From the sequence record PZ386947.1: 64,000 bases of DNA. One strand, given 5' to 3'. Shown here piece after piece: positions 48,154-48,612 of the stretch. The stretch's first letter is position 1; the number at the start of each line of letters is the position of its first letter. The stretch comes from a phage. A model generated the notes under the pieces. The model was not told the origin of the DNA, ran no database searches, and was given only the letters and a program-made list of their open reading frames with translations. A program made the position numbers and the translations under genes.

Positions 48154-48612
48154 TTATTTTAAATCGTCTGCCCAATCAACTTTAAGAGGTTCTTTATATT
48201 CACGATCTAATACGACCGGAATTTGTACATCACCGCTAAATGATAAGGGCCCAACATTATAAGACAATGTTATATGCGGTGTGTAATCATCAAAATCGTG
48301 TGTAGCACCTAGTGCCCGCGCATACATATGTCGACAGCGCAGATATTCAGAATCTAGCACAAGTACAAGAGTCGATCCATCTTGTGTTTTCCACACTTCT
48401 AAATGTCCAGAAGAAGCTACTTCAAAACTTCCACTCGATGGAACATACGGAACATTTACTCTTGAATAACATATAGTTGAATGAATTTTTTCTCTAGGAA
48501 CTGGATTAGGAACACGTAAAGAGCGCTGGAGTTCTTCCAGCGCGTCAAGTGTTAATTCTGAAAACTTAGCTGCTACATAAAGACCCGTTGAAAAGTCTTT
48601 AAATTCCATCAT
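48154..48612 (-). CDS. 57B: 2H phosphoesterase, 57B-like (T4 57B is the anti-CBASS nuclease Acb1)
   Basis: 152 aa; two H-x-T/S-x motifs (HSTICY and HITLSY) typical of the 2H phosphoesterase fold; position directly downstream of 57A as in T4. Confidence 0.8.

Follow-up and report, generated by a model that had tools for sequence, protein, structure and literature searches.

A predicted anti-CBASS nuclease gene, the orthologue of T4 acb1 (57B), upstream of three internal-protein genes in a T4-like phage

The stretch of phage DNA analysed here (sequence record PZ386947.1, 64,000 nucleotides; hereafter the window) carries a compact minus-strand gene cluster around 48 kb. In the direction of transcription the order is 3, 1, 57A, acb1, and then three small internal-protein (IP) genes, which agrees with the order 3-1-57A-57B-IP in T4T, RB14, and T4_ev240. 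The features discussed in this work are as follows.

49195-49202, minus strand: late-promoter-like TATAAATA within gene 1, about 350 nt upstream of 57A (motif match)
48839-49564, minus strand: gene 1 (dNMP kinase), upstream of 57A; ORF of 726 nt, as in T4
48609-48839, minus strand: gene 57A (tail-fibre chaperone), 76 aa; PHROG 1002 tail fiber chaperone, E = 2.4e-27, and T4T and RB14 annotations
48609-48612, minus strand: ATGA, shared by the 57A stop (TGA) and the acb1 start (ATG), read within GAAGAATGATGGAA
48154-48612, minus strand: acb1 (T4 gene 57B orthologue), 152 codons plus stop; ATG at 48612, stop at 48154-48156
48466-48483, minus strand: first catalytic motif of acb1, HSTICY (H44-S-T46), residues 44-49 (script-read residues)
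48259-48276, minus strand: second catalytic motif, HITLSY (H113-I-T115), residues 113-118 (script-read residues)
48157-48180, minus strand: C-terminal lid, residues 145-152, with W147 and V145 (BLASTP and script-read residues)
48082-48153, minus strand: intergenic PeSL cassette directly downstream of acb1 (promoter scan, repeat family, alignment, and fold)
47824-48081, minus strand: Ip5 internal head protein, 85 aa; PHROG 3499 internal head protein, E = 1.2e-48; aligns with RB14 Ip5
47464-47751, minus strand: ipI internal head protein, 95 aa; PHROG 4363, E = 1.8e-48, and T4T annotation
47155-47379, minus strand: third IP gene, 74 aa when read from the second ATG; matched by PHROG 8765 (internal virion protein) at E = 2.4e-25
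35989-36252, minus strand: Vs.4 (Acb2) homologue, 94% identical to T4 Vs.4 over all 88 residues, about 12 kb from acb1

The initial annotation placed the acb1 gene at the T4 57B position, and this is borne out by its neighbours: 57A lies immediately upstream and internal-protein genes lie downstream, as in T4T, RB14, and T4_ev240. The accompanying remark that the gene directly follows the IP array is true in plus-strand coordinates only; in the direction of transcription (minus strand), acb1 precedes the array. The real start of gene 1 is an internal ATG giving MKLIFLSG..., and acb1 would be co-transcribed with genes 1 and 57A. The ATGA overlap suggests translational coupling between 57A and acb1. 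The putative promoter TATAAATA at 49195-49202 could drive late 57A-acb1 transcription; this copy is a lead only, because the window shows no enrichment of the motif (15 matches, where 10.9 are expected and 18 of 100 shuffles reach 15). A plus-strand ORF running antisense within acb1 (48312-48476, 54 aa) found no support and was taken as noise.

Every spacer in the IP region holds one copy of TTTACA-N17-TACTAT with an upstream TG, an overlapping stem-loop, and a conserved 45-nt core. These four minus-strand cassettes of about 70 nt (47094-47154, 47392-47463, 47752-47823, and 48082-48153) match the PeSL (promoter-early stem-loop) consensus of the T4/PST pair, TTTACW-N17-TAYWAT (PMC4122927), together with its stem-loop, and are repeated between small variable genes—a role in shuffling variable genes as modules has been proposed for PeSLs (PMC4122927). 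Folding of the stem-loops gives z-scores of -2.7 to -3.4 in three of the four copies. The cassette beside acb1 folds at -17.4 kcal/mol (z = -3.35); TTTACA at 48135-48140 and TACTAT at 48112-48117 are separated by 17 nt and overlapped by a 13-bp stem-loop at 48102-48131. The arms of this stem, GATGAGGTA/TACCTCATC, are unlike the GGGT/ACCC core of the other three, and pairing is retained.

The hairpin downstream of acb1 lacks a following T-run and for that reason escaped a generic scan for intrinsic terminators; we describe it as a PeSL stem-loop, and as a putative terminator at most. The TTTACA/TACTAT pair is likely an early promoter of the next gene, Ip5. Since the hairpin encloses the -10 hexamer, the full stem would be present only in transcripts reading through from acb1, so that the stem at 48102-48131 likely serves as a mark of the 3' end of the acb1 message or gives that end stability, with the promoter serving the next gene. 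The cassettes on either side of Ip5 belong to a longer repeat (47717-47839 and 48047-48169) of 123 nt, 88% identical and reaching into the genes on either side: 57B and Ip5 share the ending ...DLK-stop (GATTTAAAATAA), and each following gene starts with MKTFKEF. The approximately 120 nt of homology flanking Ip5 is consistent with insertion or deletion of this gene by recombination relative to T4.

The number of IP genes at this locus varies—one in T4 (ipI), two in RB14, and three in both T4_ev240 and the window. The window IpI protein is identical to T4 IpI by alignment. For the third gene, the mechanical ORF (47155-47391, minus strand) encodes 78 aa beginning METKMKTYQEF; a PHROG 8765 match that begins at residue 5, a 225-nt CDS annotated at this position in T4_ev240, and a GGAAA box 8 nt upstream together point to the second ATG, at 47379, as the real start. 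The resulting N-terminus, MKTYQEFIVEA, resembles those of T4 IpII and IpIII. The surroundings of acb1 had been called a dense anti-defence neighbourhood, a description that stands for IpI, which has a documented anti-restriction role, and falls short for Ip5 and the third IP, which have no demonstrated function. The role of IpI is given in PMC4122927, which cites Bair et al. 2007 for the ability of IPI* (processed IpI) to overcome exclusion of glucosyl-hmC phage DNA. An anti-defence role for Ip5 and the third IP may be called plausible only, from their nature as injected proteins.

A tblastn search of the whole window with T4 IpII and IpIII gave no match at E ≤ 1e-5, though the flanking gene e (38325-38816) is present; the second internal-protein locus (about 36300-38300, from the vs.4 homologue to gene e) must hold different or no IP genes. 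Several other loci of the window deserve mention. The homologue of T4 Tk.4 (33839-34303, minus strand) is only 58% identical to its T4 counterpart, for which the T4T annotation gives an "A1pp phosphatase motif"; neighbouring regB is 99% identical and e 98%, and the Tk.4 homologue is a locally divergent gene. ARAGORN finds six tRNA genes at 43750-45003 (minus strand: Arg, Met/Ile-CAU, Thr, Ser, Gly, and Leu), where T4 has eight, with a 660-nt gap between tRNA-Ser and tRNA-Gly at the place of the T4 tRNA-Pro. A 171-aa ORF (45718-46233, minus strand) separates the tRNA cluster from trna.2; T4 has no annotated CDS at that place.

The cluster around acb1 is widespread among T4-like phages. In a megablast search, 819 phage records match positions 47000-50300, nearly all of them Tequatrovirus and relatives, and the genes annotated beneath the match are 3, 1, 57A, 57B, and ipI. 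Homologues of the acb1 product occur in 1,471 phage records and reach at least 95% identity in 503 (tblastn). Over a 24-kb stretch, the window shows 95-96% identity to several Tequatrovirus genomes without an exact match to any, which argues that the source is a mosaic T4-like phage and not T4 itself.

The initial annotation drew attention to two H-x-T/S motifs in the protein; both are confirmed, and they are the catalytic ones of the Acb1 tetrad. The script translation contains exactly two H-x-[ST] sites, 69 residues apart. Shuffling the same protein (n = 20,000) yields at least two such sites by chance in 16% of shuffles, a pair at a spacing of 55-85 residues in 4%, and a pair so spaced with a hydrophobic residue after each site in 0.4%. 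Because shuffled versions reach it at these rates, the motif pair alone is weak evidence; significance comes from full-length homology.

That homology extends to every residue for which a function has been published. The active-site tetrad H44, T46, H113, and T115 is present at the published positions (script against PMC9117128), as are the stacking residues Y12, W74, F107, and W147 and the adenine-reading E141, so that nine of the nine catalytic and ligand-contacting residues are kept. Loss of a catalytic His motif had been named beforehand as a possible refutation of the 2H phosphoesterase assignment—in the alignment neither motif is lost, and H44/T46/H113/T115 are intact. An intact ORF in which every functional residue is conserved excludes a pseudogene or a decaying allele.

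Family profiles identify the protein in the same way. Pfam PF23474 (Anti-CBASS protein Acb1) scores 201.3 bits (E = 7.5e-60) against a curated gathering cut-off of 27 bits, with residues 9-150 spanning the whole profile (positions 1-144 of 144). An NCBIfam scan of the protein matched no family; the library has no model for Acb1, and this is a gap rather than evidence. The best PDB sequence match is 7t26/7t27, Acb1 of Erwinia phage FBB1 (E = 1.1e-61), whose 2H phosphoesterase fold was solved at 1.1-1.2 Å (PMC9117128); in these structures residues 145-152 form a lid that shuts over the ligand (PMC9117128). Across 142 aligned residues the two proteins are 67% identical, with a single gap of one residue, which argues that the compact 2H phosphoesterase fold and its C-terminal lid (residues 145-152) are conserved in the window protein.

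The 2H fold is common to Acb1 and the LigT enzymes (PMC9117128), and it is here that another function has to be weighed: a LigT-type 2'-5' RNA ligase or RNA 2',3'-cyclic phosphodiesterase with RNA ends as its substrate, for instance during tRNA repair. RefSeq and the PHROG family label the protein "RNA ligase", tRNA genes lie about 3-4 kb from acb1, and there is a weak match to Pfam 2_5_RNA_ligase2 (PF13563). That match, however, amounts to 13.1 bits (E = 0.1) over residues 81-123 only, below the cut-off of 27, where the Acb1 model reaches 201 bits. Moreover, the T4 protein (99.3% identical) was identified by its activity as the nuclease that degrades cyclic oligonucleotides in infected cells, its deletion phenotype is CBASS-specific, and its pocket is made for cyclic di- and trinucleotides (PMC9117128). 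We consider action on RNA ends extremely unlikely and reject it as largely refuted; the label reflects the shared 2H fold. Many GenBank/RefSeq records call the gene "hypothetical protein" or "RNA ligase"—these labels are older or automatic and hold no contrary evidence. Correct annotation is at stake here: acb1, an anti-CBASS nuclease, in place of either label.

By BLASTP the window protein is identical to T4T gp57B at 151 of 152 residues (99.3%), and L145V is the sole difference; this is the alignment with T4 Acb1 that the initial annotation had put forward as a check. Its identification of T4 57B with Acb1 is correct according to Hobbs et al. (2022, PMC9117128), and its label, "Acb1-like candidate", named the right protein in too weak a form, the gene being an orthologue of the type protein. 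We conclude that the window ORF almost certainly encodes Acb1, the anti-CBASS 2H phosphoesterase of T4-like phages (T4 gene 57B). This assignment draws on sequence identity, the full set of functional residues, family membership, and synteny, and no result of the analysis speaks against it.

The biology of the type protein is well described. T4 gene 57B was found by activity-guided fractionation as the 3'3'-cGAMP-degrading enzyme of infected cells and was named Acb1 (Hobbs et al. 2022, PMC9117128). The H44A substitution inactivates T4 Acb1, H44A/H113A serves as a catalytically dead control, and T4 lacking acb1 is restricted by CBASS operons (PMC9117128). The tetrad carries out metal-independent acid-base catalysis via a cyclic phosphate intermediate; the ligand bases stack on Y12, W74, F107, and W147, E141 reads the adenine N6, and the binding pocket suits cyclic di- and trinucleotides (PMC9117128). 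In a HIDEN-SEQ transposon screen, 57B/acb1 was dispensable on K-12 and depleted on a CBASS-expressing host (bioRxiv 10.1101/2025.11.20.689424).

By analogy, the window protein would act as follows. A CBASS cyclase in the infected cell would make a cyclic di- or trinucleotide alarm signal, which Acb1 would take into its U-shaped pocket with the bases stacked on the four aromatic residues. Adenine would be read via E141 as the C-terminal lid shuts over the ligand. The H44/T46/H113/T115 tetrad would then perform metal-independent acid-base catalysis, in which the adenosine 2'-OH attacks the 3'-5' bond to give a 2',3'-cyclic phosphate intermediate and then a linear product. With the signal gone, the CBASS effector would never be activated and the phage cycle could be completed.

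The conservative change L145V is the only point particular to this allele relative to T4. The substitution falls within the substrate lid, at a distance of two residues from W147, and is assumed to leave activity unchanged. The V145 allele is found in other circulating phages (tblastn)—the homologue of Shigella phage CM8 is 100% identical to the window protein, so the allele is present there too. Being near W147, L145V could shift specificity, possibly off the decoys monitored by Panoptes (2',3'-c-di-AMP and cA3), an idea that we regard as very improbable; if true, L145V would be an adaptive variant in an arms race between Acb1 and Panoptes, not a neutral polymorphism.

Panoptes also raises the possibility that an intact acb1 is mainly a liability or decoy, in that depletion of cyclic nucleotides would trigger Panoptes types I and II and the allele may drift towards altered specificity or loss. 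Type II Panoptes senses the loss of cA3; it restricts the Acb1-encoding Tevenvirinae Bas35-37, whose escapers mutate acb1, and Bas43 has a natural acb1 nonsense mutation (PMC13577387). With type I Panoptes, over-expressed acb1 lowered colony formation, yet deletion of acb1 from T4 had no effect on the defence, the trigger being T4 acb2/vs.4 (PMC12657218). The window ORF, moreover, is full length, keeps all functional residues, and is identical to alleles of other circulating phages. A mainly harmful acb1 is to our minds vanishingly improbable, and even then it would supplement the Acb1 explanation rather than replace it.

The phage encodes homologues of both known T4 anti-CBASS genes, acb1 and acb2/vs.4 (acb2 is vs.4 in T4; PMC12657218). 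With this pair, the phage is predicted to resist many CBASS types and, conversely, to be sensitive to guard systems of the Panoptes type, both of which are relevant to the choice of host or of therapeutic phage.

Several known systems serve for comparison. The closest is T4 Acb1 (gp57B, NP_049750.1), which has the same length as the window protein (152 aa) and whose catalytic tetrad and ligand-contact residues are all matched; T4 has L145 in the C-terminal lid, whereas the window protein has V145. The T4 locus likewise has 3, 1, and 57A as upstream neighbours with the same stop/start overlap, and immediately downstream of 57B it carries the same PeSL stem variant as is found beside the window acb1. 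The two loci differ in 57A, which encodes 76 aa in the window, RB14, and T4_ev240 (231 nt) and 80 aa in T4 (243 nt), and in what follows 57B: ipI lies directly downstream in T4, whereas the window has Ip5 there, with one extra IP gene and one extra PeSL inserted. Ip5 is absent from T4 at this position and present in RB14 and T4_ev240.

FBB1 Acb1 (PDB 7t26, apo; 7t27, with a 3'3'-cGAMP analogue) has its HxT/HxT motifs at positions identical to those of the window protein; it has F at window W74 and Y at window F107, and the aromatic nature is kept. A more distant protein of 165 aa (PDB 9q2g and 9q2y), deposited as "Anti-CBASS protein Acb1", aligns at both His motifs (HVTVLY and HLTLAY) with marginal overall similarity (E = 0.004, 20 bits), and represents a remote branch of the family. 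The LigT/2'-5' RNA ligase branch (Pfam PF13563) has the superfamily fold and two H-x-T/S motifs in common with the window protein; it acts on RNA ends, whereas Acb1 acts on cyclic oligonucleotide immune signals. Finally, Acb2 (T4 Vs.4) targets the same CBASS pathway with a sequence that bears no resemblance to Acb1—later papers, including PMC13577387, describe it as a sponge that sequesters cyclic nucleotides, and not as a nuclease.
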